Source: a virus
Taxonomy: Duplodnaviria > Caudoviricetes
Length of the DNA: 59,588 nucleotides
Direction: 5' to 3' (one strand)
Virus record (IMG/VR): IMGVR_UViG_3300021403_000011
Location: 1 to 59,588 of that record
Shown here one piece after another: positions 3,739 to 59,588 of this stretch (within the stretch, counting starts at the first letter, position 1; each line of letters starts with the position of its first letter). The notes below the pieces were generated by a model. The model saw only the letters and a program-made list of their open reading frames with translations, had not been told where the DNA came from and ran no database searches. Made by a program: the position numbers and the translations under genes.

Positions 3739-6294
3739 ATGGCCGGCGCGTTCAAGCAAGACCCGCTGATCCTGACCGTGTCGGGGTCCGGGACCTCGAC
3801 GACGTCGAACCCGCCCGGGTTCCCCGCGGTGACGGCCGGCAGCTCGATCCTCGCCATCGGCACCAACGACACCGGCGGCGCCGGCGACCCGAGCGTGGCC
3901 GACGATGACCCGACCAACCTCGCGGCGTACACCAAGCTCGAGGACGTCACCGACACCACGGACGGCCAGCGCTTCTACGTCTTCTGCAAGGAGAACACGA
4001 GCGCTAGCGCGGTCCGCGTCATCACCATGACCTGGACGGCCGCCGTCGCCGCGCGCGGCTTCGGCATGGCGGAGATCTCGGGCTCGATCGCGCCGGGGGG
4101 CATCGACAAGCACGTCAGTAACTTGCAGACCGCCCCCACGACGGGGACCGACGCCGTCACCAGCGGCAGCTCCGGCACGCTGTCGAAGTCCCCCAACTTC
4201 GCCGTCGCGATCTCGATGGACATGTCGGGCTCGACGGCGCCGGCGACGGGCACCGGATGGACGAGCCCGAACGCAAACTATACCGGCTGGGCGACCTACG
4301 GCGGCGTGCGCATGGAGGGCAAGAACACCTCCGCCACCACGCCGATCGCGGGCACGTTCACCGCGATCGCGAACACGATCCACATCACCGCCCTGGTCGT
4401 GTTCGACGACATCGGCTCATCGGGTGGGGCCGTGACCACGATCTCCGACGAGGCGCCGCCCCGCCGACCACCGTTCCAGTCGACCGGCGATCGCCAGGCC
4501 GAGCAGTGGACGCTCCAGCCGCTGGGGGCCTCGCAGCCGATCAAGTCCTTCCTGGCGACCGAGGGGATGGACCGGCGCCCGTCGTCCGTGCCGCGCCACA
4601 CGTCCGTGCCGTGGACGCTGACCGCCCTGGCCACGCCGACGATCAAGCCGTGGTGCGACCTCGCGCCGCCGGCGCGCGTCCCGCCCTGGGCGCGGCCGCG
4701 CGTGCTCCAGCCGGACGTCTCGATGCAGCCGCTCGGGCAGTCCTCACCCGTGCGGAACTTCCTGCACCAGCACCCGGCGATCGCGCCGCCCTGGCGCGGG
4801 CCGCGCCCCCAGCAGCAGCCCTGGGTCGGCGCGCCGATCGTGGCCTCGCTGCCCGCGCTGCTGGTCAACGACGAGGCGCAGGTCGTGCGCCCGCGCCGCA
4901 TCCGGCGCTGGGCCCCCATGGGAGCGTTGGCGCGCGCGGCGCCCAGCACCGAGAGCTTCCCGTTCGCGCCCGACGCCACGGGGCGCTTCCTCGTGGACTC
5001 CCACGGCGCGCCGGTGCCGATCATCGCGCGCACCGCCTGGGGCATCCAGAGCCTCGGCAGCTCGGACTTGGCGGAGTTCCTCGACGACACCGTGGCGCGC
5101 GGCTACACCGGGATCGAGTGCCAGATACCGTGCAACCTGGCGGCCATCCACAACAACCCGTTCGACTGCAACGGCAACCTCCCCTTCAACAAGCTGCTCG
5201 ACACGTCCACCTGGACCACCGGCTCCTTCTCCGGCAGCAAGCCCGACCTGTCCACGCCGAACGCGGCGTTCTGGGCGAACGTCGACAACATCGTCGCGGC
5301 CTGCCGCACGCGCAAGCTGTGGATGGTCTGGTTCTCCGCCTACCTCGGCATCGACAGCAGCGAGGGCTGGGAGACGACCATGACGGCCAACGGCGACCCC
5401 GCGACGATCGCGTACGGCGCGTTCGTGGCGAACCGCTATAAGCCCCAGCCCAACATCGTGTGGGGGACCGCGGGAGACACCGCCTCGGGGTTCGACGAGG
5501 AGGACGACCACATCACCGGGCTGCAGTCGGTGTCGGGCCAGCGCTCGGGGCCCCAGTTCACGGCGGAGCGCAACGGCGGGTCGATCTCGAGCGACGGCAC
5601 CGGTCCGCTCGGCGCGGCCATGACCATCAATGGTGGCTACGACTGGCCGACGGTGATCGCGCAGTGCCGGCGCGCCTACGCCTTCGGCACCACGACGCGC
5701 GCCATCCCCTCCTTCATGATCGAGGGCCCCTACGACGAGGAGGGGCCAGACGGCAACAACATCAATACCATCGCGACGCAGCCCGTCCGGCGCTGGCCCT
5801 GGTGGGCCATCATCGAGACGATCGGCGGGTTCATCCAGGGCAACGGCTACATCTGGCCGTTCAACCCGACGGGGACGCCGCCCGCGACCGACAACTGGAA
5901 ACTCCACAAGAACACGCAGACCACCCAGGACATCACGCGCCTCGCTGCCCTCTGGAAGTCCATCGCGTGGTGGACGCTGATCCCGTCTGGCCAGAGCACG
6001 ATGGGCACGCTCATCACGTCCGGGGCGGGGACCCCCGACAACGCCAACTACGTCGCGTCCGCCTGCAACCCGGCCGGGTCGCTCTGGATCGCCTACGCCG
6101 GCCCGAGCCGCGCGAGCACGTTCACCGTCGACATGACCGTGATGCGCGGGACGGCGACGGCGCAGTGGTGGAACCCGTCGACCGCCGCGTTTACCTCGGC
6201 CGGGTCGATCGCCAACACGGGCACCCACACGTTCACGGTCCCCGGCGACAATGGGACGGGGTTCTCCGACTGGGTCCTGGTGATGACGGCGTGA
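3739..6294 (+). CDS. multidomain protein: N-terminal virion-like domain, Pro-rich linker, DUF4038/GH140 (apiosidase)-like domain, C-terminal collagen-binding-like domain
   Basis: GRFLVDSHGAP..TAW, FVANRYK..PNIVW..AGD, FMIEGPYD, WWNPST...DWVLV motifs. Confidence 0.7.
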   Translation: MAGAFKQDPLILTVSGSGTSTTSNPPGFPAVTAGSSILAIGTNDTGGAGDPSVADDDPTNLAAYTKLEDVTDTTDGQRFYVFCKENTSASAVRVITMTWTAAVAARGFGMAEISGSIAPGGIDKHVSNLQTAPTTGTDAVTSGSSGTLSKSPNFAVAISMDMSGSTAPATGTGWTSPNANYTGWATYGGVRMEGKNTSATTPIAGTFTAIANTIHITALVVFDDIGSSGGAVTTISDEAPPRRPPFQSTGDRQAEQWTLQPLGASQPIKSFLATEGMDRRPSSVPRHTSVPWTLTALATPTIKPWCDLAPPARVPPWARPRVLQPDVSMQPLGQSSPVRNFLHQHPAIAPPWRGPRPQQQPWVGAPIVASLPALLVNDEAQVVRPRRIRRWAPMGALARAAPSTESFPFAPDATGRFLVDSHGAPVPIIARTAWGIQSLGSSDLAEFLDDTVARGYTGIECQIPCNLAAIHNNPFDCNGNLPFNKLLDTSTWTTGSFSGSKPDLSTPNAAFWANVDNIVAACRTRKLWMVWFSAYLGIDSSEGWETTMTANGDPATIAYGAFVANRYKPQPNIVWGTAGDTASGFDEEDDHITGLQSVSGQRSGPQFTAERNGGSISSDGTGPLGAAMTINGGYDWPTVIAQCRRAYAFGTTTRAIPSFMIEGPYDEEGPDGNNINTIATQPVRRWPWWAIIETIGGFIQGNGYIWPFNPTGTPPATDNWKLHKNTQTTQDITRLAALWKSIAWWTLIPSGQSTMGTLITSGAGTPDNANYVASACNPAGSLWIAYAGPSRASTFTVDMTVMRGTATAQWWNPSTAAFTSAGSIANTGTHTFTVPGDNGTGFSDWVLVMTA

Positions 6295-9203: not shown

Positions 9204-9260
9204 GGGGTCTCCTCTCTGCGCTTGTTATTACCCCGCGTCGATCGCGTAACATCGGGCGAC

Positions 9261-10067
9261 GTGGGTGCGCTCGCATACAACCCAGACGTCGCCATAGCCC
9301 GCGCGAAGTACCAGCAGCGGGTCATCGACGCGCGCACCAGCCTCCAGAACTTCATCGAGTTCGCCGGCCGCTCCGAGGAGGGCGCCGGCATCGAGCTGGA
9401 CCACATCCACAAGATGTGGTGCCACCACCTGACCTACTGCTGGTCGCGCGGCCTGCACGCGGGCATCCTGGCGCCGTTCGGGTCCGGCAAGTCGTCGACC
9501 CTGGCGGTGCCCCTGTCGTGCTACCTGATCGGGCGCAACCCGCAGATCCGGATCAAGTTGGTGGCCAACCACGACGACTACGCCAAGCGCCGGGTCGGCG
9601 CCGCGAAGGCGATCATGGAGACCGTCGAGTACCAGCAGGTCTTCCCGCACATCGTGCCAGGTGAGAAGTGGACCGACCACGAGCTCGAGGTGGCGCGCAT
9701 GCGCGGCCCGATCGATCCCACGCTCCACGCGCGCGGCGTCCTGACTGCCGGCGTCGGCACGCGCGCTGACGTCGAGATCTTCGACGACGTCTGCGACCAG
9801 CTCAACAGTGAGGAGCCCGGCAGCCGGCGCAAGGTGAAGGAGTTCGTGCGCCGCACGTGGCTCTCCCGCCTCGACCAGAAGGCCGGGCGCGCGCTCTGGA
9901 TAGCGACGCCCTGGGACCCGGACGACGCGACCTACGACTTGATGCACGACCAGAAGTGGGCGTTTCTTGTCCAAAGGGTCGCTAAGAGCCACACCGAATA
10001 CGACCAGGAAGTCTTCAATGTCGGCGACGACTATACGGTCGGGTTGGAGGCAATATTGAAGAGATGA
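9261..10067 (+). CDS. terL: terminase large subunit, ATPase half only
   Basis: Walker A APFGSGKS, G.RAD, Walker B IFDD, coupling ATPW; GTG 8 nt after TAACAT. Confidence 0.85.
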   Translation: MGALAYNPDVAIARAKYQQRVIDARTSLQNFIEFAGRSEEGAGIELDHIHKMWCHHLTYCWSRGLHAGILAPFGSGKSSTLAVPLSCYLIGRNPQIRIKLVANHDDYAKRRVGAAKAIMETVEYQQVFPHIVPGEKWTDHELEVARMRGPIDPTLHARGVLTAGVGTRADVEIFDDVCDQLNSEEPGSRRKVKEFVRRTWLSRLDQKAGRALWIATPWDPDDATYDLMHDQKWAFLVQRVAKSHTEYDQEVFNVGDDYTVGLEAILKR

Positions 10068-10597
10068 CCCACGGAAATGCTCGCCTGCGCCGCCCGCTGC
10101 GCATCTTCGAGGACCGAGTGGAGATCCCGCTGACGCGCGGCAAGGTCGCGATCGTCGACCTGATCGATGCGGACCTCGCGTACTTCAATTGGACGACGGA
10201 GGCCAGTCAGGACGGACTGCGGTGGTACGCGCATCGCAATGGCCCGCGTCCCCGTCGGGAATGCATAAAGCTCCACCGCGAGATCGCGAAACGGATGGGG
10301 CTCAAGTTGAACGGGCGGGAAGTCGATCACCACGATGGCGATGGACTCAACTGCCGGCGGGTCAACCTGAGGCGCGCGTCCAGCGGTCAGAACAAGCACA
10401 ACGCGAGGAAGCCGCGCAACAACAAGAGCGGGTTCAAAGGGATCTCATGGAGGCAGGACAGCCAGAAATGGCAGGTCCACATCCAGGCCAATAAGAAAGC
10501 CCACTACCTGGGATTGTTCGCTGACCTGTCAACCGCGGTCGCCGCGCGGTCTGAGGCCGCGCAGCGTCTCCACGGGGAGTACGCCCGGGCCGTGTAA
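10064..10597 (+). CDS. HNH-AP2 homing endonuclease
   Basis: VDHHDGDGLNCRRVNLR..QN; AP2 SGFKGISW..KW..I..YLGLF..AAQRLHGEYA. Confidence 0.9.
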   Translation: MTHGNARLRRPLRIFEDRVEIPLTRGKVAIVDLIDADLAYFNWTTEASQDGLRWYAHRNGPRPRRECIKLHREIAKRMGLKLNGREVDHHDGDGLNCRRVNLRRASSGQNKHNARKPRNNKSGFKGISWRQDSQKWQVHIQANKKAHYLGLFADLSTAVAARSEAAQRLHGEYARAV

Positions 10598-15764: not shown

Positions 15765-15793
15765 TGGACAACCGTTACGATATTTACTAACGT
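15765..15793 (+). promoter_or_regulatory. sigma70-like promoter with conserved spacer (copy 1)
   Basis: TGGACA-ACCGTTACGATATTTAC(17)-TAACGT. Confidence 0.75.
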
Positions 15794-15851
15794 GGTCTGC
15801 GTAGGACGGGACGGCGATGAGCCGGGCCGAAACGAACCGAGGAGGTTCCCG

Positions 15852-22535: not shown

Positions 22536-22802
22536 ATGGGAAGTGACAGGCAGAGGTTCAGCACGGTCGCGTGCCCGTTCGGTTGCGACTGGTCGTGGGT
22601 CATCGTTGATTTCGCACCACCGCACTCGGTGCAGCACTACGTCGTCCCGGCGACCGGCGAGGACTCGATCGTCGTGATGGGCGAGGTCAACGGCCTCATC
22701 CCCCAGGTGACCGTCAGCATCCTCCGCCGCCACGCTGGCCAACTGAGCCCCAACTTCCTGTTCAAAAAGTCCCACACCTGCCCGAAGATCACCCGAGGTT
22801 GA
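22536..22802 (+). CDS. hypothetical protein
   Basis: AGGAGG SD. Confidence 0.55.
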   Translation: MGSDRQRFSTVACPFGCDWSWVIVDFAPPHSVQHYVVPATGEDSIVVMGEVNGLIPQVTVSILRRHAGQLSPNFLFKKSHTCPKITRG

Positions 22803-22805
22803 ACA

Positions 22806-22958
22806 TTGGCGAACAACGACCGCCCCGTGACCTGGTGGAACTGCCCGCGCATCAGCATCAAAGACGTGGTCTTGGTGACCGTCGGGTACCAGTTCGGGAG
22901 CTTCATCGGCCAGATCATCGTCGAACTGCTTCGCCGCGCGCTCGGGCTGGTATCCTGA
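22806..22958 (+). CDS. 50-aa hydrophobic peptide
   Basis: GAGG SD, TTG start, fills gap. Confidence 0.35.
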   Translation: MANNDRPVTWWNCPRISIKDVVLVTVGYQFGSFIGQIIVELLRRALGLVS

Positions 22959-22963
22959 CCGCC

Positions 22964-24475
22964 ATGCCTTATGCGAGTAACCGTCAGCGGCGCTTCCTCC
23001 ACGCGGTCAAGCCCGAGGTCGCGGCGGTCTACGACCGGCACGAGCGCCAGGCCCCGGCGATCGGCTCCGCGGTCGACTTCTCGACCCTGCGCCAGCGCGG
23101 CCTGGTCGGCATCTCGGACCGCGTCATCGCCGACCACCTGGCGATGTACGAGCGGTGGTGCGCGGAGCTGCGGCTGCTGGACGCTGCGATCGCCTCGCGC
23201 CCGCTGACCGCGCCGGCGGCGATGCCGAGCGCGGCGGTGGAGGACCTGCTGCGCCGGCGGGTGCGCGACCTGCCGCTCCAGGAGATCAGCGGCCGGCTCG
23301 AGGAGGTGATCGACCAGCTCAAGGGCGAGTTCGTGGCGAGGGGGATCACGTGGTTCCCGACGTTCTACCTGGGCGAGGCGGACTTCTGGACGGCCGATCG
23401 GGCGACGTCGATCAACGTGCCGTGGTACCTGGGCGACGACGTGCTGTGGTCGTTCGTGAACGGGCAGGACGCGCGTTACACGCCTGAGGAGGTACTGGGG
23501 ATCCTGCGGCACGAGGCTGGGCACGCGCTCGGCTACGCGTTCGAGCTCTATCGGCGACAGGACTGGAAGCGCACCTTCGGCAACTTCGGCGCGTCCTACC
23601 GCGACGAGTTCCCGATCGACGCGCAGTCGACGGACTACGTGCGCCACCTCCACGTCATGGACGCCGGCGCCAACGCGCACTACGCCCAGAAGCACCCGGA
23701 CGAGGACTGGGCCGAGACCTTCGCCGTATGGCTCGACCCCGGCAGCCGCTGGCGCGAGGCCTACGCCGCGTGGCCCGGCGCGCTGGCGAAGCTCGAGGCA
23801 GTCGAGCTGATGCTGGTGGGTGAGGGCGCGGCTTACGGCCTGCCGTCGGACACCAGGATCGGCCGGCGGGTCCCGTACGCGACGCTCGACTACACCGTGG
23901 GCGAGTACCTGGGGCAGGCCGAGCAGGACCGGCCAGACCCGCGCGCGGCGGCGCTGCGGCGGCGGCCGGAGGTGTACAGCGCGGTGGTGCTGCACGAGCT
24001 GTACTTCGGTGGGCTTGAGCGCGGCGCCAACGGTCTCGGCCTGGCGCTGACCGGCCGCTTCGCCGAGCTGGCGGGCCCGGACTGGGCAGCTGACTTCCGC
24101 GTGGCGGCGGAGGCGTCCGGCGTCGGCTGGGTGCTCGCTGTCTGGGACCGGCGCGACAACCGGGTGCGCAACGTCCTGGTGAGGGGGCACGACCAGGGCG
24201 TGCCCCCGGGGTGCGAGGTCCTGCTGGCGCTGGACATGCACGAGCACAGCTACGCGGCCGACGTCGGCGCGCGCCGGGACGCGTACGTCGCGGCCTGGTT
24301 CCGCAACGTCTCGTGGTCGGTGGTGAACGGCCGGCTCGACCGCGCGTACCCGCCGCGCGTGGGGGCATTCACGATCGAGAACCCTAACGCGATGTTCGTC
24401 GGGGACCTCGCCGAGCGCAGTGATGCCGTCTTCGTGCGCCGCGACGTCGTCATCAAGCCGCCCGGGGACATATGA
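22964..24475 (+). CDS. Fe/Mn superoxide dismutase-fold protein with inserted Zn-metallopeptidase (Peptidase_Mx-like) domain
   Basis: SOD: ISDRVIADHL.MY, VLHELYF, GW...WD, LLALDMHEHSY; peptidase: RHEAGH, YAQKHPDEDWAETFAVWL. Confidence 0.8.
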   Translation: MPYASNRQRRFLHAVKPEVAAVYDRHERQAPAIGSAVDFSTLRQRGLVGISDRVIADHLAMYERWCAELRLLDAAIASRPLTAPAAMPSAAVEDLLRRRVRDLPLQEISGRLEEVIDQLKGEFVARGITWFPTFYLGEADFWTADRATSINVPWYLGDDVLWSFVNGQDARYTPEEVLGILRHEAGHALGYAFELYRRQDWKRTFGNFGASYRDEFPIDAQSTDYVRHLHVMDAGANAHYAQKHPDEDWAETFAVWLDPGSRWREAYAAWPGALAKLEAVELMLVGEGAAYGLPSDTRIGRRVPYATLDYTVGEYLGQAEQDRPDPRAAALRRRPEVYSAVVLHELYFGGLERGANGLGLALTGRFAELAGPDWAADFRVAAEASGVGWVLAVWDRRDNRVRNVLVRGHDQGVPPGCEVLLALDMHEHSYAADVGARRDAYVAAWFRNVSWSVVNGRLDRAYPPRVGAFTIENPNAMFVGDLAERSDAVFVRRDVVIKPPGDI

Positions 24476-24687
24476 GCCGCCGTCGGATCCCCGAGGCCGC
24501 TAATCACGCCGCGAAAGACCCGCGCGGAATCTGGGGCGAGCTGCATTTCGTCCCTGACGGCAGACGATCGGTCTACTGGGTCTCGCGGCGCTACAGGGGC
24601 GGTTGGGTCATCAACGTCTGGCATCGCTGGGTCCCGAGGACGCACCATCAGGTCAGGCCCGCGGGGATGTTCGACCGTCGCGGGTAA
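24472..24687 (+). CDS. hypothetical protein
   Basis: ATGA-coupled; TAA stop forms the next TAATAT. Confidence 0.5.
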   Translation: MSRRRIPEAANHAAKDPRGIWGELHFVPDGRRSVYWVSRRYRGGWVINVWHRWVPRTHHQVRPAGMFDRRG

Positions 24688-24698
24688 TATCCCCATCG

Positions 24699-24962
24699 AT
24701 GGTCAGCGAGTATGTCGTCGGGCAGTGGCTGTTCGTCCGTTTTTGCGGGATGGACTGCTTCGGGAAGTTCGTCCATGCCAAGGAGCACCAGGTCGTGGTC
24801 GACGTCTTTTATGCCGAGTCAAAACCGGCTAACTATTTACCGACGAGAGCGGTCGATTACTTCGGTCAAAACGGATTGAGGAATCCGCCGTCACGGGTCG
24901 ATTTCGGGCGCGCCGCGTGCTTGATCGCCCCGGTCGAACCGCCATTGGTCCTGCCGGCCTGA
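24699..24962 (+). CDS. hypothetical protein (lower GC)
   Basis: ATG 8 nt after TAATAT. Confidence 0.5.
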   Translation: MVSEYVVGQWLFVRFCGMDCFGKFVHAKEHQVVVDVFYAESKPANYLPTRAVDYFGQNGLRNPPSRVDFGRAACLIAPVEPPLVLPA

Positions 24963-25009
24963 CACCGCGCTGGTGCGCGCGGTCTACCCGGACCTGGTAC
25001 CCTGATCGC

Positions 25010-25276
25010 GTGGTCAAGAAGGCCGCCGCCGCCCGGAAGTCCCGCCGCCAGCTCGCCACGGTGCACGCGCTCCCGGGCGCCGACCGCCCCGAGGACTCGC
25101 TCAAGCGCCTGCACGAGGTGCTTGCCAATGAGGCCCCGAGCGCGGTCATCATCATCAGCGTGGACGCCGGCGGGAAGATCGACGTCAGCAGCTTCGGCAA
25201 GCACGACGACGAGCAGCTGATGGTGGCGGCCGCGCGCATCATGCTGGTCGTGGCGCAGGGCCAGGCCGGCGAGTGA
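25010..25276 (+). CDS. hypothetical protein
   Basis: GTG 6 nt after TACCCT. Confidence 0.55.
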   Translation: MVKKAAAARKSRRQLATVHALPGADRPEDSLKRLHEVLANEAPSAVIIISVDAGGKIDVSSFGKHDDEQLMVAAARIMLVVAQGQAGE

Positions 25277-25305
25277 ACCGCGGCCAGCAGCTCCCGTCGA
25301 TCCCG
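25273..25305 (+). pseudogene. stranded original 5' end of the terminase nuclease gene (MNRGQQLPSIP)
   Basis: Encodes the same 11 aa as 25869-25901; GTGA-coupled to upstream stop; frame stops at 25320. Confidence 0.8.
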
Positions 25306-25323
25306 ACGGTAATATCCTAAGCC

Positions 25324-25872
25324 ATGCGCTTTATCGACCTGACCGGCGACATCTTCGGTCGCTTGGTCGTAATGGAACGAGCGCCGAGTCGCGCGCGGAA
25401 CGTCTACTGGTGGTGCCAATGCTCGTGTGGTCAGCGCTGTGCTGTGATGGGTGAGCTGCTGCGCCTGGGGAAGACGAGTTCATGCGGGTGCCTCAAGGCG
25501 GAGACGTACTACCAGATCGACGTGAAGCGCCCGGCAGTCATCGACGGGGACATTGTCCGCATCCAGCTGACCAAGGGCCTGGTGGCGATCGTCGACCTGG
25601 TCGACGCTGACCTGGCACTGTTCAACTGGTGCGCGCTCAAAGGTCGTGACACCTGGTACGCGGCTAGGAACAAGACCGTACCGGAACGCGAGACCATTCT
25701 CCTGCACCGCGAGGTGGCGAAGCGGGCCGGCCAGGCGATCGATGGGTTGGAAGTGGACCACAAGAACGGCGACGGCTTGGACTGCCGGCGGGACAACCTC
25801 AAGCCCGCCAGCCGTTCCCAGAACGCGATCAACACCCGCCGGTATCGCGAGAAACTGGCTACTCTCGGATGA
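25324..25872 (+). CDS. HNH homing endonuclease with N-terminal Zn domain
   Basis: DLTG..FGRL.V..W.CQCSCG..SSCGC; EVDHKNGDGLDCRRDNL..SQN. Confidence 0.9.
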   Translation: MRFIDLTGDIFGRLVVMERAPSRARNVYWWCQCSCGQRCAVMGELLRLGKTSSCGCLKAETYYQIDVKRPAVIDGDIVRIQLTKGLVAIVDLVDADLALFNWCALKGRDTWYAARNKTVPERETILLHREVAKRAGQAIDGLEVDHKNGDGLDCRRDNLKPASRSQNAINTRRYREKLATLG

Positions 25873-26627
25873 ATCGCGGGCAACAACTGCCGTCGATACC
25901 GTGCTGGTCCTTAAAGCACCCCAAGAAGGCCCTCGACGACCTGGCGCGCGACGAGGGGACGTGGAACCGCGGCTACGCGATGAACCCGATCTCCCCGGGC
26001 GAGCTGAAGTTCCCCAACTTTGAGAAGTGCCGGAAAACCGGGATCCTGCTGTCGGACCTGCACCAGCGCCAGCTGCCGGCCTACGTCGGGGTCGACCTGA
26101 GCTCCAAGAACCGCCCCGGCAACGCGATCGTGGTCGTGGGGCTCGAGCCACCGCTGATGCGCCGGTACCTGCTCGAAGTCCGGTTCGGCGCCTGGACCAG
26201 CCCGGACACCGCGTCGAACCTGGCCGAGGTCTGCTCCCACCACAACGTCCAGTGGATCCAGGTCGAGAACAACGCCTACCAGCAGGCCATCATCGACTGG
26301 GTCAAGAAGGAGAAGGCCAAATTCCCCTACTGGATGAAGATCATGCCGTTCACCACCGGCGCGGGGAAGGCAGACCCGCAGTACGGCCTGCCGGGCCTGG
26401 AGGTCGAGTTCAAGAACGACGGCTGGGTGATCCCCTACTCCGAGTACGAGAGCCACCCGACGACCTGCCTGTGCGACTGGTGCCACCTCGACAATGAGTT
26501 CCGGAACTACCCGCGCGCGGCGACGAGCGATGGCGTGATGGCGACCTGGTTCGCGAGGGACGCGGCGAACAAGTGGGCGCCCCGGACCGGCGGCGCCCGG
26601 GTGAAGGGGAACGTCCGGCGCAGGTAA
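25869..26627 (+). CDS. terL: terminase large subunit, RNase H-fold nuclease half
   Basis: Y.MNP, VGVDLS, IVVVG, VENNAYQ, YP..TSDGVMA. Confidence 0.8.
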   Translation: MNRGQQLPSIPCWSLKHPKKALDDLARDEGTWNRGYAMNPISPGELKFPNFEKCRKTGILLSDLHQRQLPAYVGVDLSSKNRPGNAIVVVGLEPPLMRRYLLEVRFGAWTSPDTASNLAEVCSHHNVQWIQVENNAYQQAIIDWVKKEKAKFPYWMKIMPFTTGAGKADPQYGLPGLEVEFKNDGWVIPYSEYESHPTTCLCDWCHLDNEFRNYPRAATSDGVMATWFARDAANKWAPRTGGARVKGNVRRR

Positions 26628-26637
26628 TATCCTGGGC

Positions 26638-27012
26638 ATGGGAGACAAGGCTGGCCAGGCACCGCTCCACGCGGTGGTCAAGGTCATGGAGGTGCGCGGC
26701 CCGCGCGGCGGGACGGTGCACGTGCTCGTCCTGTCCTGCGGGAGCTTCGTCACCCGGCGGCTGAAGGAGATACACGCGGCGCCCGAGAGCGTGCCGTGCA
26801 TCGCCTGCTTCGTCCGCGAGCAGATGACGCTGGAGCCGGTGGTACATGCCCGGATCACTGATGACCAACTCTACAAAGGCGTGGTGGCGACACGGTGCGG
26901 ACTGAACATCGACGTCGAGCAGGGCTGGGCATGGGGGCGCCATGACGTCACCTGCGGCCGCTGCGTCGCCGCGATGGACGCCGCGCCGAAGAAGAAGCGC
27001 CGCCGTGGGTAA
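26638..27012 (+). CDS. Cys-rich hypothetical protein
   Basis: ATG 7 nt after TAATAT. Confidence 0.55.
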   Translation: MGDKAGQAPLHAVVKVMEVRGPRGGTVHVLVLSCGSFVTRRLKEIHAAPESVPCIACFVREQMTLEPVVHARITDDQLYKGVVATRCGLNIDVEQGWAWGRHDVTCGRCVAAMDAAPKKKRRRG

Positions 27013-27223
27013 ACCGAACCTCAGGATAGCTTGCGTCGAGTTCTATGACGACGGCCCGGACGAGCAGGGGCGCCGCCACTACGCGCTGACGTGGTGGAGC
27101 GAGAGCGCGCCGATCCATTCGACGGTCCCCGGCCGCGAGCACATCTGTCTCGGGTACGGGCTCGGGATGCGGGGCCAGCACTTCCACGCGAACCCCGATC
27201 GGCTGGCGCCCCGGATCGTGTAG
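27005..27223 (+). CDS. hypothetical protein
   Basis: Overlapping chain; TAG stop forms TAGCAT box. Confidence 0.45.
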   Translation: MGKPNLRIACVEFYDDGPDEQGRRHYALTWWSESAPIHSTVPGREHICLGYGLGMRGQHFHANPDRLAPRIV

Positions 27224-27234
27224 CATCGGCCCCC

Positions 27235-27558
27235 GTGGCAGACATCATCGACGAACGCTCGGTCCTCACGCCGATCGCGGCCAAGGTGATCGAGGTCGCC
27301 GCGACGCCGCTGGACGCGCTGGGCTTCGCGGAGACGACGTCGATCAGCATCGGGCTGGGCGAGGACCGGAAGGCGTTCGTGTTCACGCTGTCGCAGAGTG
27401 CACGCGCCGCGATGAAGGACGACGCCGGCCGCGACCGCCTGGGGGACCTCGCGCTGCAGTTGGGCGCGTTGGTCAACCCGTCGAGCGCGGTGCTGGTGGT
27501 GCTGCCGGACGGGGAGCAGCTGTCCGCGTACCGCGTGGAGGTCGAGCCCCCGCGATGA
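27235..27558 (+). CDS. hypothetical protein
   Basis: GTG 8 nt after TAGCAT. Confidence 0.55.
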   Translation: MADIIDERSVLTPIAAKVIEVAATPLDALGFAETTSISIGLGEDRKAFVFTLSQSARAAMKDDAGRDRLGDLALQLGALVNPSSAVLVVLPDGEQLSAYRVEVEPPR

Positions 27559-27722
27559 GTCGCAAGACCAAGAAGAAGGTCCCGCTGCCGTATGACAGTC
27601 GCCTGTGGCCAGCTACGTATTGGAGGATCCCCAAGATGTCGTGGGCACCGCGCTGCCAGTGCGGTCGGCTAACCTGCAGCGAGTGCCACGCCGGCGCCGC
27701 CGCAAAGCTGGAGGCGCAGTGA
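27555..27722 (+). CDS. 55-aa Zn-binding peptide
   Basis: Coupled on both sides; CQCG..CSEC. Confidence 0.4.
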   Translation: MSRKTKKKVPLPYDSRLWPATYWRIPKMSWAPRCQCGRLTCSECHAGAAAKLEAQ

Positions 27723-29050
27723 AGAAGAAGCCCAGGGTCGACGTCCCGCCCGCGGCCGAGCAACGCCAGCGGATCGAGTACATGGAGCTCGGCGTCCTGC
27801 TCAAGTTCCCGAAGAACCCACGCGGGCACGACTTCGTCGCCCTGGGCGAGGCCTTCAAGGACCGGGGCTTCGTGACGCCGCTGTTGCTCGACGAGACCTC
27901 GGGGCTGCTGGTCGAGGGGCACGGGCGCCTCGAGAAGCTCGAGGAGATGCGCGCGGCCGGGGCGCCGCCGCCGGCGCGCATCGAGGACCGCGACGGCAAG
28001 TGGAGCGTGCCGGTGGTCCGCGGCGTCTACTTCGAGAACATGGACCAAGCCCGCCGCCACCTGCTGGGCGCGAACCGGATCGGCGAGGGGCTGTGGGACA
28101 ACCGCCTGACCGCGGACATGCTGGGCAAGCTCGGCGAGGGCAACCTGATCGGCAGCGGCTTCGGCGAGAAGGACCTCGTGACCTTCCTCGCGCGCGCCGG
28201 CGGCGCGCCGGGCGAGGGCGCGACCGACCCGAACGCGGTTCCCGAGCGCCCGAAGAAGGCGCGCAGCAAGACGGGCGACCTCTGGATCCTGGGCGAGCAC
28301 CGGCTGCTGTGCGGGGACTCGACCGTTGCTGCGGACGTGAAGCGGCTGATGGGATCGGATCGCGCGGCGATGATGGCGACCGACCCGCCGTACGGCGTCG
28401 ACTACACCGATGAGCAGCGCGTAGGCGCGGCGAAGCAGGTCGATGGTGGTAAGCGGAAGCAGATCTGGAAGGTGTCGATCGACAACGACGACAAGACCGG
28501 CGCCGACATCCAGCCCTTCCTCGAGGCCGTCTTCGCGGCGTCGCTGCAGCACGCGCTCGCGCCGAACGCCGCGTGGTACCTGTGGCACGCGCACATGACG
28601 CAGGGATTCTTTGCTGCTGCTGCTGCTGCTGCTGCAAACCTCGTGCTCCACCGGCAGATCATCTGGGTGAAACCTGGGATGCTGCTGGGGTTCGGCGACT
28701 ACCACTGGCGCCACGAGCTGTGCTTCTACGGGTGGGTCAAGGGCAGCCGGCCGCCGTTCTATGGGGACCGGAACCAGACGACCGTTTGGGAGGTGTCGAA
28801 CGAGACCGCGGCGGCGAAGCGCGTCCACCCGACCCAGAAGCCGGTGGAGATTTTCGAGCGCCCGATGAACAACCACGTCAAGCGCGGCGGCGTCTGCTAC
28901 GAGCCCTTCAGCGGGTCGGGCACCCAGATCATCGCGGGCGAGCGCCTGGGGCGCCGGGTGCTGGCGATGGAGAAGGATCCGGCCTACGTCGACGTCGCGG
29001 TCCAGCGCTGGGAAGAGTTCACCAAGCTGAAGGCCAAACTTCAGAAGTGA
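27719..29050 (+). CDS. ParB-like domain fused to N6/N4 DNA methyltransferase
   Basis: NPR.H, GF..P, GHGR; HRLLCGDS, DPPY, IIWVK, HPTQKP, EPFSGSG. Confidence 0.9.
   Translation: MKKKPRVDVPPAAEQRQRIEYMELGVLLKFPKNPRGHDFVALGEAFKDRGFVTPLLLDETSGLLVEGHGRLEKLEEMRAAGAPPPARIEDRDGKWSVPVVRGVYFENMDQARRHLLGANRIGEGLWDNRLTADMLGKLGEGNLIGSGFGEKDLVTFLARAGGAPGEGATDPNAVPERPKKARSKTGDLWILGEHRLLCGDSTVAADVKRLMGSDRAAMMATDPPYGVDYTDEQRVGAAKQVDGGKRKQIWKVSIDNDDKTGADIQPFLEAVFAASLQHALAPNAAWYLWHAHMTQGFFAAAAAAAANLVLHRQIIWVKPGMLLGFGDYHWRHELCFYGWVKGSRPPFYGDRNQTTVWEVSNETAAAKRVHPTQKPVEIFERPMNNHVKRGGVCYEPFSGSGTQIIAGERLGRRVLAMEKDPAYVDVAVQRWEEFTKLKAKLQK
28613..28636 (+). repeat. (GCT)7GCA triplet tract (poly-Ala8) inside the methyltransferase
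   Basis: Read directly from sequence. Confidence 0.9.
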
Positions 29051-33823: not shown

Positions 33824-34273
33824 GTGGCGAAGCCGGCTGCCGTCCGCGCCTGGGCGACCCGCATCAAGAAGCGCGCGGGCGCGTCCTCCGACGACCGGGT
33901 CGTCCGCCGCATCCAGCGCGAGGCCAAGCGCGCGGGCGCTACCCTGGCGCACGGCGGGAAGGGCGGCTTGGACCCTAGGCTGGCGCTCAAGGTGTTCCGG
34001 CGGGACCACTGGCGCTGCTCGAACCCGAAGTGCCCGACCCCCAAGAAGGACCTCGACCTGGACCACCAGAGCGGTCATCCGGAGGAGATCCTGCAGGACC
34101 CGAAGGCCCGGAAGGACCCCGGGGACCGGGCGGCCGCGCGCGCGGGGGATGACCCCAAGGACGACCGCTACTTACATACGTTGTGCGTCAAATGCCACGA
34201 CCGGGTCCACGACCGGGAACGGGCCATCGAGCAGGGGAAGCGTCCTAAACCGATGCGCGGCGCGGCCGGGTAA
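33824..34273 (+). CDS. HNH endonuclease
   Basis: VFRRD.WRC..C...LDLDH...LHTLC..CH..VH. Confidence 0.75.
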   Translation: MAKPAAVRAWATRIKKRAGASSDDRVVRRIQREAKRAGATLAHGGKGGLDPRLALKVFRRDHWRCSNPKCPTPKKDLDLDHQSGHPEEILQDPKARKDPGDRAAARAGDDPKDDRYLHTLCVKCHDRVHDRERAIEQGKRPKPMRGAAG

Positions 34274-34398: not shown

Positions 34399-34427
34399 TG
34401 GACATCCGTTACGATATTTACTAGGAT
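34399..34427 (+). promoter_or_regulatory. sigma70-like promoter with conserved spacer (copy 2)
   Basis: TGGACA-TCCGTTACGATATTTAC-TAGGAT. Confidence 0.75.
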
Positions 34428-34469
34428 GGTCCTCAACGGCGATGAGCCGCAGAAACCGAGGAGGTTCCG

Positions 34470-51679: not shown

Positions 51680-52864
51680 ATGCCGTTCGACTCGCAGGAG
51701 CTCGGGCTCCAGATCAAGCTGCTCGAGGGGTCGATCTCGACGGAGACCCTGCAGACCGGCCAGCCTCCCGGGACGGTGCTGCTCGTCGGCCGCGCGGCGC
51801 ACTTCAAGGGCACCAAGTGGGGCCGCAAGATGCGGGTGCAGACCACCTTCAGCCCGGGCAACCCGAACGGGACCCAGCAGGTCATCGGCCGGACGCTGGA
51901 GCCGACGACGTTCACCGGCGAGTGGAACGACCGCTTCCTGGGCGACGGGCAGGCCCAGGCGCTGCGCGTCCTGTTCGAGCGCATCCACGACGCCGGCGTC
52001 TCGGTGCAGGTCACCTGGGGCGGCGCGCTCGGCGGCGAACCAGGCGCGCCGGTGCTGTCGGGTGAGGCCTACGTCCGGGTCGGGATCATGAGCGCATTCA
52101 CGCCGACGACCGACCGCGTGCAGGACGTCCCATGGGAGGCGACGTTCGACTGGCGCTCGGCGGGCGAACCGGCGGCGCCGCCGATCGCCGCCACCGGCAA
52201 GCTCAACCCGTCGGAGGGGTTCGGCGCGCTGACTGACCAACTCGACCTCGCGACCGCGACCTGGACCGCCGTCAGCCAGGGCCCGCAATTCGCCGCGGGG
52301 ATCTCCCAGGCCGCCGAGAACGCGATGGCCCAGGCGTTCGCCGCGGTGCAGTCGGCGAGCGACACGATCGCGAACGCGACCGCCCAGGTGACGTCGACGG
52401 TCGTCATCCCGACCCAGGCGGCGCTCCAGCTCATCGGCGCGGCGCAGACGGGCCTCCAGTCGATCGCGACCATGGAGTCGACGCTCCTCAACGTCAACCA
52501 GCTGCTGCTCGAGGTGCAGGACAGCGCGCTCGACCTGCTGCGCCTAAAGGACCAGGTCCTGACCACGCTGCAGGTCTGGCTGGGGGCGAAGGGCGCATGC
52601 GTCGACGCGAGCGAGGGGATGCAGCAGTACGTCGAGAGCGACGTCATCGCGGAGGTCCGCGCGCCGGCGGGAACGGACCTCCGCGACCTGGCCATTCGAT
52701 ACTACGGCGACGCCGACCTCTGGTTCGCGATCGCGCGCGCCAACGGGATCGACGGGTCCGCCGTGCCGTCGCCGCCCGGCGGCCCGAGCGACGACCCGGC
52801 GCGGCCGATCAGGATCCCACGCCCGCAGCCGGGGTCCTCGTCTGACATCCGGCAGCAGTGCTAG
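51680..52864 (+). CDS. tail tube initiator with C-terminal LysM/Tail X-like domain
   Basis: DLRDLAIRYYGDADLW.AIARAN. Confidence 0.75.
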   Translation: MPFDSQELGLQIKLLEGSISTETLQTGQPPGTVLLVGRAAHFKGTKWGRKMRVQTTFSPGNPNGTQQVIGRTLEPTTFTGEWNDRFLGDGQAQALRVLFERIHDAGVSVQVTWGGALGGEPGAPVLSGEAYVRVGIMSAFTPTTDRVQDVPWEATFDWRSAGEPAAPPIAATGKLNPSEGFGALTDQLDLATATWTAVSQGPQFAAGISQAAENAMAQAFAAVQSASDTIANATAQVTSTVVIPTQAALQLIGAAQTGLQSIATMESTLLNVNQLLLEVQDSALDLLRLKDQVLTTLQVWLGAKGACVDASEGMQQYVESDVIAEVRAPAGTDLRDLAIRYYGDADLWFAIARANGIDGSAVPSPPGGPSDDPARPIRIPRPQPGSSSDIRQQC

Positions 52865-53027
52865 CGCGTTTGTTCCAGAGCACGGCTTTCTGATCTCCGA
52901 ATGCATTGCCGCGGTAGTTCCTGGGGATAGCAGGCCCCTCGGCGCCGCATTCGAAGCACAGGATCTGATTCCCGTGTGAGCGACATAGGTTCGATGAACC
53001 GCAGAACGGGCAGGGGAGTAGGTCCAT
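52809..53027 (-). CDS. Lar-family restriction alleviation-like protein
   Basis: LLPCPFCG...C.ECGAEGP...A...WNKR; TAATAT 7 nt upstream. Confidence 0.7.
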   Translation of the reverse strand: MDLLPCPFCGSSNLCRSHGNQILCFECGAEGPAIPRNYRGNAFGDQKAVLWNKRASTAAGCQTRTPAAGVGS

Positions 53028-53065
53028 GCCTGGGATATTACCTGCCGGTCCGGTAGCATCGTCCC

Positions 53066-59530: not shown

Positions 59531-59559
59531 TGGACAAGCGTTACGATATTTACTAACGT
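59531..59559 (+). promoter_or_regulatory. sigma70-like promoter with conserved spacer (copy 3)
   Basis: TGGACA-AGCGTTACGATATTTAC-TAACGT; ATG 7 nt later. Confidence 0.75.
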
Positions 59560-59588
59560 TGTTCACATGAGGACAAACTGGGGATTCG

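Follow-up and report, generated by a model that had tools for sequence, protein, structure and literature searches.

A free-standing HNH endonuclease gene in the 5′ end of a phage terminase nuclease gene, followed by a respelled copy of the gene start

The window analysed here is a whole IMG/VR virus record from soil (IMGVR_UViG_3300021403_000011; Caudoviricetes) of 59,588 nucleotides (nt), with a G+C content of 69% and an estimated completeness of 68%. In it, a gene for an HNH endonuclease, here called HNH1, lies at the 5′ end of the gene for the nuclease domain of the terminase large subunit, and the sequence MNRGQQLPSIP is encoded on either side of it. Copy 1 (GTGAACCGCGGCCAGCAGCTCCCGTCGATCCCG; 25273-25305) begins with GTG and lies upstream of HNH1, while copy 2 (ATGAATCGCGGGCAACAACTGCCGTCGATACCG; 25869-25901) begins with ATG and opens the complete nuclease gene; these and all other features lie on the plus strand unless a minus sign is given. 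The copies differ at 7 of 33 nt, namely the first base of the start codon and six third positions. A first-pass annotation of this DNA had reported the same pair at the same coordinates with the same count, and had called all seven differences silent. Six are silent third-position changes; the seventh exchanges a GTG start for an ATG start, both read as methionine. The couplings it had described are also present. The GTG of copy 1 overlaps the TGA of an upstream open reading frame (ORF; 24917-25276) in the form GTGA, and the ATG of copy 2 overlaps the TGA of the HNH1 ORF (25324-25872) in the form ATGA.

The resemblance between the copies is sharply bounded. A repeat search pairs them as family D2 at 81% identity, and no similarity beyond the 33 nt was found in the 40 nt on either side, where their likeness equals that of shuffled sequence (0.77 of shuffles upstream and 0.38 downstream reach the observed score). 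The longest identical run between them is 8 nt. NRGQQLPSIP is the sole duplicated peptide of at least 10 amino acids (aa) in a six-frame scan of the window; the remaining duplicated words are 8-9 aa long and mostly rich in R, P, S and A. When six substitutions were placed at random in codons 2-11, all six were silent in 25 of 200,000 trials (P = 1.25e-4). A Logan contig of 4350 nt from run X1, built separately from the record, covers 23698-28047 with 0 differences from the window; the run is probably the same sample, so this contig is not fully independent. Because the match is perfect, the arrangement is present in public reads and reflects no edit or scaffold join. The order of gene fragment, HNH gene and complete gene is no assembly or editing artefact of the record.

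Copy 1 opens a 15-codon mini-ORF (25273-25320), hereafter the stub, which consists of 12 apparently native codons (MNRGQQLPSIPT) followed by GTA ATA TCC TAA. It continues natively for one codon past the shared peptide, with ACG for Thr12, and then ends 3 nt before the ATG of HNH1, whose frame it shares. To describe codon usage we drew a table from 38 reference genes with high G+C at third codon positions (GC3), in which 645 of 11,009 codons (5.9%) count as rare; the starts of these genes are longest-ORF starts, and some may be wrong. In agreement with the earlier description of copy 1 as genome-typical, 0 of 11 codons are rare in stub codons 2-12, and the log-likelihood of codons 2-11 is a typical -3.85. 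Thr12 occurs in 16 of 30 aligned relatives, where it is the commonest residue, and all 16 are among the 20 closest.

The nuclease gene's working start is different in character. We delimit it as codons 1-15 (25869-25913), the part that would have been replaced. Its codons 2-11 respell the stub synonymously and are followed by Cys12, Trp13, Ser14 and a Leu15 encoded by TTA. Five of the 14 codons from 2 to 15 are rare (AAT, CAA, CAA, ATA and TTA), and the log-likelihood of codons 2-11, -18.26, falls in the lowest 0.35% of 10,870 ten-codon windows. Codon usage is normal from codon 16 onwards (10 of 237 rare in codons 16-252). The flanking Pro11 and Trp13 are nearly invariant among the relatives, Cys12 and Ser14 each occur in 0 of 30, and most relatives have Lys in place of Ser14. 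By these comparisons, the working start is aberrant in its codons and in two residues. A search for tRNA genes, made with the rare TTA codon in mind, found none in the window.

One relative without an HNH gene has a start of the NRGQ type. In this locus, L005, the gene begins TTG AAC CGG GGG CAG AAG CTC TTC TCG ATC CCC ACG TGG AAG CTC AAG CAC, with the TTG overlapping the upstream TGA (TTGA). Compared by eye at the seven sites that distinguish the two copies, L005 agrees with copy 1 at four (AAC, CAG, CTC, ATC) and with copy 2 at one (GGG). A second locus, L006, reads CCG ATC CCC ACG TGG AAG CTG AAA CAC at the corresponding place and can be compared at two of these sites only; one fits copy 1 and the other copy 2. 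The first-pass annotation had held that use of the second codon set by HNH-free relatives would speak against its reading, and L005 does not use that set. The absence of rare codons from the stub, its Thr12, the agreement with L005 and the oddities of copy 2 together point to copy 1 as the native start, left behind as a stub, and suggest that copy 2 either arrived with the endonuclease or evolved beside it. The native gene is broken between Thr12 and Trp13, within its most conserved N-terminal motif, and the stub shows no decay.

HNH1 (25324-25872) is intact and encodes a free-standing endonuclease of 182 aa with matches to Pfam PF13392 (HNH_3), phrog_374 and phrog_99. The Pfam match spans residues 127-168 (E 5.3e-8, 32.8 bits against a cut-off of 24.8), and the motif residues D145-H146, D157-N158-L159 and Q166-N167 are present; some of these D-H, DNL and QN residues would be the catalytic ones. 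As an ORF it starts and stops independently of the host protein, to which it is not fused in frame. Its codon usage departs from that of the genome, with 37 of 181 codons rare (20%, against 5.9% genome-wide) and a GC3 of 0.82. A 295-nt contig from a second soil metagenome (X2) covers 25333-25627, without the flanks, and is about 97% identical to HNH1; 7 of the 8 listed differences are silent, and the other is Met17Ile. The ORF is thus under purifying selection, and because a variant this close differs almost wholly at silent positions, the gene is probably active. HNH1 therefore looks both foreign and functional to us. Its relatives are remote: 11 loci in viral contigs, the best at 44% over the C-terminal half, and 23 matches in the protein collection, none close, the best at 45-58% and partial. 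Searches of PDB sequences with HNH1 and with the nuclease gave no match below E 0.4.

The public gene call for HNH1 (P0059, 141 aa) starts at an internal codon. In the full ORF, the N-terminal 62 residues match phrog_374 (E 1.9e-21), and the variants at codons 14, 17 and 39 either are silent or change the residue conservatively. On account of that match and those variants, the 182-aa ORF, opening with the ATG behind the promoter-like motif described below, appears to be the better gene model.

The host gene (25869-26627) encodes a protein of 252 aa. It has no Pfam match, but aligns with columns 484-697 of the 760 columns of phrog_38, the terminase large subunit (TerL), at E 1.1e-12. An AlphaFold2 (AF2) model with a predicted local distance difference test score (pLDDT) of 77 gave as top Foldseek matches in the PDB 5oe8, 3ezk, 2wbn and 5m1f (E 1e-5 to 2e-5), all of them TerL nuclease domains, from D6E, T4 gp17, SPP1 G2P and G20c. 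D76, E133 and D221 are invariant in 31 nuclease sequences and would be the catalytic residues of an RNase H-like TerL nuclease fold. The missing half lies 15.8 kb upstream, where a stand-alone ATPase-domain gene (9252-10067) matches the complementary columns 264-471 of phrog_38 (E 1.3e-27). The host gene is thus the nuclease domain of a split large terminase, and it is almost certainly essential.

The same split occurs in a related virus, G001, with the halves about 14 kb apart (1399-2292 of locus L024 and 3986-4795 of locus L004), and for that reason we regard the split as old. The protein collection holds 58 stand-alone homologs of the nuclease type (216-277 aa) and, besides the protein of the window, 60 stand-alone proteins of the ATPase type (227-290 aa); some nuclease-type and ATPase-type members pair through longest contigs of equal size (83,410, 59,889, 85,454 and 96,393 nt). 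Our literature search found no description of a terminase split into ATPase and nuclease proteins, and no paper with the phrase 'split terminase'. The N-terminal motif of the nuclease, LPxIPTW, is disordered in the model, and our guess is that it may dock the nuclease to the ATPase protein.

DNA around the nuclease gene of relatives is available for eight metagenome loci and one viral locus, the latter being the same contig as one of the eight (L009 and L004). We found no HNH match in these loci (L004-L012), five of which, L004, L005, L006, L010 and L011, include at least 460 nt upstream of the gene. In L005 (62% identical in protein) and L006, the nuclease gene directly follows a superoxide dismutase (SOD)-like gene. 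Judged from these loci, where the corresponding site has no HNH gene, HNH1 is an insertion. This bears out one element of the first-pass annotation, namely that the HNH gene is a lineage-specific addition to the 5′ end of a conserved and almost certainly essential gene, which phrog_38 and the fold identify as the terminase nuclease domain. The same annotation had held that the gene is invaded without splicing; consistent with this, an Rfam scan of 24400-27100 (E up to 1) found no intron or other RNA family beyond a chance match to PtaRNA1 (20 bits, against 47).

The left end of the insert coincides with a short motif. GGTAATATCC, which contains the -10-like hexamer TAATAT, lies at 25308-25317, 6 nt before the ATG of HNH1, and its first G is exactly where the insert begins (... 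CCG ACG|GTAATATCC); at most 1-2 bases are shared with the native ACG TGG. The next copy, at 26623-26632, contains the TAA stop of the nuclease gene and precedes an ATG at 26638. The motif recurs in the window in 9 exact copies, or 13 with at most one mismatch where 0.44 are expected. In the form [GT]GTAATATC[CA] there are 11 copies, at 1842, 10593, 12797, 19150, 24683, 25308, 26623, 34269, 36274 and 38487 (+) and at 53042 (-). These are the exact copies and two forms with one mismatch. In ten of the 11, an ATG comes 5-9 nt later and begins an ORF of 30-388 aa, the exception being the copy at 34269, after which the next 12 nt contain no ATG. A low GC3 (0.64-0.82) marks several of the ORFs that follow the motif, as in acquired cassettes, and one of them, of 72 aa (52812-53027, -), encodes a restriction alleviation protein of the Lar type (PF14354, E 2.4e-8). 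Because its spacing fits a -10 element with transcription beginning at the ATG, GGTAATATCC is a probable promoter class for leaderless transcripts. A sigma-70 consensus scan of 24400-27100 found no promoter; GGTAATATCC has no -35 element, and its assignment rests on repetition and spacing. A related motif stands after the nuclease gene in L005 and L007, where GTAATATCA is followed by 5 nt and an ATG. The motif is therefore the usual signal of this group before accessory genes, and it could have come from any donor belonging to the group.

A second gene of the same kind adjoins the other half of the terminase. HNH2 (10064-10597; 177 aa), also of the HNH_3 type, is 54% identical to HNH1 over 117 aa, carries a different, extra C-terminal module and has 36 rare codons out of 176. 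Its ATG overlaps the TGA of the ATPase gene, and at its other end the TAA falls within the promoter-like motif that comes next (TGTAATATCC at 10593). No HNH gene was found next to the ATPase gene in G001. The last 34 codons of the ATPase gene (9963-10064), beside HNH2, include 14 rare ones (binomial P 2.5e-9), more than the maximum of 11 in the tails of the 38 reference genes; the rest of the gene has 13 in 237. The protein sequence of this tail is conserved in relatives, and the window alone departs at the near-invariant positions Cys237 and Ala257. Each HNH gene is thus bordered, on its terminase side only, by a conserved protein tract in unusual codons, and the border of HNH2 with the ATPase gene is a second instance of the same flank signal. 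There is no stub beside HNH2 and no room for one, as only 10 nt lie between the HNH2 stop and the ATG that follows.

We consider it likely that an HNH_3 homing-endonuclease gene entered the terminase nuclease gene after codon 12 and brought with it a replacement start, by co-conversion from a related donor. The inserted block would comprise the leaderless-type promoter GGTAATATCC, the HNH ORF and a new start with about 15 replacement codons. In this way the host protein would be kept whole without intron or intein, and the old start, coupled through GTGA, would remain as a stub. The replacement segment most likely derives from a related phage. In this donor the endonuclease gene would have lain between a promoter and the nuclease gene, directly upstream of the latter, whose first codons had already become a poor substrate. 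A break in the native site of the recipient, at about codons 10-15, would have been repaired from this donor, and the segment would have been co-converted with the endonuclease. At the right end, homology within the gene would have guided the repair, close to codon 16. The left end, where donor and recipient have no sequence in common, would have been joined without homology at codon 12, so that the first 12 codons of the recipient were kept as the stub.

The respelling could serve the element in two ways. The enzyme may act poorly on the resident allele because of it, for which the only indirect signs are the rare codons of codons 2-15 and the two residues seen in no relative. It may also leave copy 2 so different from the stub that recombination between them no longer removes the insert; since no identical run between stub and working start exceeds 8 nt, the insert should be protected from repeat-mediated deletion. 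Every reading frame remains usable, and translation could also pass along the locus as a chain: from the upstream gene to the stub through GTGA, from the stub to HNH1 in the same frame, with the stub's TAA 3 nt before the ATG, and from HNH1 to the nuclease through ATGA. The data show the anatomy of the locus, what the host gene is, the lack of the HNH gene in relatives, the native look of the stub, the oddity of the working start and purifying selection on HNH1; we infer the donor, the repair route, cleavage of the native site, immunity of the recoded site, the activity of the promoter and the translational relay through the stub. The first-pass annotation had proposed that promoter, HNH gene and recoded start form one mobile unit, and that the recoding probably destroys the target of the enzyme. 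Both are conceivable. The motif itself occurs throughout the phage (11 copies) and is not a hallmark of the element.

Several observations weigh against the co-conversion we favour. As just noted, the promoter motif belongs to the phage's own repertoire, which weakens the case for it as cargo. The closest full-length-type relative of HNH1 is the phage's own paralog HNH2, at 54%. The closest relatives with DNA are 61-63% identical in protein, and the immediate empty allele is not among them; the relatives at 74-83% identity (P0001, P0002 and P0003, at 83, 79 and 74%) were compared as proteins only. P0001-P0004 differ from the window in 1-3 of the first 11 residues, whereas the two copies agree in 11 of 11. 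Because silent divergence is usually accompanied by 1-3 residue changes here, a diverged donor would not be expected to look like copy 2. A degenerate DNA pattern for NRGQQLPSIP had 0 matches in viral contigs and so revealed neither a donor nor a second cassette, and a pattern for IPCWSLKH had 29 matches (1 viral, 28 genome), of which 0 encode a nuclease homolog. The codons of copy 2 are also less extreme when set against other gene starts. Among the 38 reference genes, 4 have at least 5 rare codons in codons 2-15, and 2 match the low log-likelihood of copy 2 in codons 2-11; the median for these codons is -10.1 in genes, against -5.8 in all windows, so that poor starts are common here. Measured against other starts in this genome, copy 2 is no more than mildly unusual in its rare codons, and since poor codons are usual at such starts, part of the respelling could reflect selection for an unstructured start.

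Other searches were likewise empty. Isolated phage genomes gave no match to 24400-27100 by blastn (distant mode) or to the 252-aa protein by tblastn, no relative of the nuclease protein was found in genome contigs, and none of the Logan contigs laid on the window joins the stub to the gene body. Read joints such as 25227 to 27938 were considered as an empty allele and rejected. Their sides span 21-22 letters at a likeness of 80 and they carry extra letters, so we treat them as look-alike contigs of other organisms.

Could the junction have arisen with no causal part for the endonuclease? Illegitimate recombination between two related phages, or an unequal crossover at the shared 10-nt motif with later loss of most of the first nuclease gene copy, would produce a mosaic in which the silent differences are simply the divergence of two parents. 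One parent would have supplied everything up to codon 12 of its nuclease gene, and the other the promoter, the HNH gene and a nuclease gene of its own. The left junction does fall exactly on the first base of the motif. The nuclease stop lies inside another GGTAATATCC (26623), and a GTAATATC motif stands just after the stop in L005 and L007; because the motif sits at the nuclease stop, a tandem intermediate of the form nucA-P-HNH-nucB is conceivable. The several promoter-led ORFs of low GC3 already mentioned likewise resemble independently acquired cassettes. We nevertheless think this origin unlikely. The breakpoint lies in the most conserved N-terminal motif (LPxIPTW) and beside an endonuclease, as homing predicts and a random junction does not. 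The aberrant codons are local to the endonuclease side (10 of 237 rare from codon 16), the same local signal appears beside HNH2, and two events would be needed. The perfect identity of the peptides raises a different thought, that the first 33-36 nt were duplicated in place when promoter and HNH gene were inserted, and that the downstream copy then diverged silently under selection, to escape cleavage or to avoid deletion between repeats, with no foreign donor. All 11 residues are identical despite changes at 6 of 10 third positions, all four two- or threefold degenerate sites have changed but only two of the six fourfold ones, and the longest identical run left is 8 nt. This account is nonetheless quite improbable, for it leaves codons 12-15 hard to explain: codon 12 would have had to change from ACG to TGC at all three bases, the Ser14 codon TCC differs at every base from AAG (Lys) in L005 and L006, and the TTA of Leu15 departs at two bases from their CTC or CTG. 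The undecayed stub implies, moreover, that little time has passed. We know of no insertion mechanism of HNH genes that a target duplication of 33-36 nt would fit.

The two HNH proteins might instead be working partners of the split terminase, the duplicated start being a by-product of recruitment. Kala et al. are said to have reported in 2014 that HNH proteins of the HK97 gp74 type are partners in HK97-like packaging, and here each HNH gene adjoins a terminase gene and overlaps it in an ATGA that couples the two in translation, HNH2 after the ATPase and HNH1 before the nuclease. The relatives make such a partnership very improbable. No HNH gene is found at either locus of G001 or at the nuclease gene of L005 and L006, which have the same split, and the conservation that a working partner should show is thus not seen. 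Both genes also have foreign-looking codon usage, and HNH_3 (PF13392) is a type common among free-standing phage endonucleases (PMC2248197). That two strain variants were joined in a chimeric assembly is scarcely credible. The record is a metagenome assembly, and many partial look-alike contigs point to strain variants in the soil, but the separately built contig from X1, probably of the same sample and so not fully independent, spans 23698-28047 with 0 differences, and the only sequence shared at the junction is the 10-nt motif, which is shorter than the usual assembly word.

Co-conversion of a gene end with an endonuclease has its nearest parallel in fungal mitochondria. There, mobile endonuclease ORFs (mORFs) form 'gene hybrids' that supply a foreign C-terminal part of atp6, atp9, cox2 or nad3 and leave the native C-terminus downstream, with largely silent differences between carried and native copies (PMC3630166). 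The hosts are Glomus sp. (atp6, atp9, cox2 and nad3) and, as cited in the same source, Allomyces macrogynus (atp6), and in Endoconidiophora part of the C-terminal end of atp6 and of cob is described as duplicated next to endonuclease ORFs (PMC6279837). As there, an endonuclease ORF has entered a coding gene of the phage without an intron, accompanied by a diverged copy of one gene end through which the gene stays complete; beside it the native end persists as an unused remnant, and the copies differ mostly at silent sites. The endonuclease ORF lies between two copies of one end of the host gene, one continuous with the gene and the other a truncated remnant, and the remnant groups with the host lineage while the working copy is divergent, a grouping for which 33 nt permit no tree. 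Unlike mORFs, which replace the 3′ end, the insert here replaces the 5′ end and the start codon. The enzyme is of the HNH_3 type rather than LAGLIDADG or GIY-YIG, and its ORF is separate, with its own promoter-like motif, so that the host gene restarts by a stop-start overlap and not by in-phase fusion. The host is a phage terminase gene, and the carried piece amounts to only about 15 codons. By analogy, then, the locus seems to work like an mORF without being one, as its end is not the 3′ end and its junction is not in phase.

Among phages, the free-standing homing endonucleases of the T4 type, such as SegB and MobE, are described as practising 'intronless homing' with co-conversion of flanks (PMC2330249, PMC2790892). 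A review of the T4-type enzymes lists endonuclease genes inside ORFs, mobE in nrdA of Aeh1 and mobA in gene 60 of T4, as well as a seg gene that splits its host gene (PMC2988022). The present locus shares with these a free-standing endonuclease gene beside a conserved essential gene, a sporadic distribution in relatives and a flank that would be transferred along. It differs in that, in the cases named by the review, insertions fall between genes or split the host into two polypeptides (PMC2988022), whereas here the host protein remains in one piece with a new start, and the old one persists as a stub. The string 'duplicat' occurs 0 times in the same review, and neither it nor our searches of the homing-endonuclease literature contained a phage case of a carried replacement gene end (PMC2988022). 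In the Xanthomonas phages Xp10, OP1 and Xop411, a study describes free-standing HNN-AP2 or HNH_3 genes with no conserved or duplicated flanks, for which sequence-independent spread was proposed (PMC2248197). Those genes, too, occur as several paralogs per genome in positions that vary between relatives. Unlike them, HNH1 has a flank that carries a respelled host gene start.

To our knowledge, homing endonuclease genes are thought to survive in essential genes only by means of introns or inteins, or by splitting the gene into two working pieces. The mechanism we favour is plausible, and the locus shows a third solution in a phage, in which replacement first codons follow the invader and the host protein keeps its length and nearly all of its sequence. 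If the respelling does confer resistance, the locus offers a natural pair of sensitive and immune sites 600 nt apart for a cleavage assay. Endonuclease targets could then be found by sequence alone, and short peptide duplications and patches of rare codons beside phage HNH genes would be explained. The locus may be one instance of a common, undescribed habit of phage homing endonucleases. A fuller version of this idea strikes us as rather doubtful: it holds that promoter, endonuclease and respelled, cleavage-immune start form a general means of intron-free invasion, the stub perhaps relaying ribosomes, and that the two paralogous HNH genes attached to both halves of the terminase have driven recoding of the nuclease start and of the ATPase tail. 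The locus also carries a caution for annotation, since it is the start of the stub, and not the real one, that shows the classic signs of a gene start, stop-start coupling and typical codons.

The surroundings of the nuclease gene mix conserved and variable genes. The SOD-like gene (22799-24475) encodes 558 aa with a C-terminal Fe/Mn superoxide dismutase domain (E 2.9e-13) and a putative zinc metallopeptidase region (Peptidase_Mx, just below the cut-off). It is kept upstream of the nuclease gene in L005 and L006, and the loci of relatives keep the order SOD-like gene, nuclease gene, ParB-methylase gene. The small gene directly upstream of the stub (24917-25276) has a longest ORF of 119 aa with a GC3 of 0.88; its likely start is at 25010, giving 88 aa, and 2 of 87 codons from 25013 are rare. 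It had no Pfam or PHROG match, and no homolog was found in the relative loci L004-L024. Three small ORFs around the nuclease gene, at 24699-24962, 25010-25276 and 26638-27012, have no family match and no homolog in the relatives' loci, and they look like lineage-specific additions; the first and the last immediately follow a GGTAATATCC motif. Further on are the genes for the portal, the major head and the tape-measure protein, at 30.3, 41.7 and 49.9 kb. Elsewhere in this GC-rich DNA, an AT-rich motif of about 30 nt, TGGACA..CGTTACGATATTTACTA.., occurs in three copies (15765-15800, 34399-34434 and 59531-59566) and may be a second class of promoter or operator.

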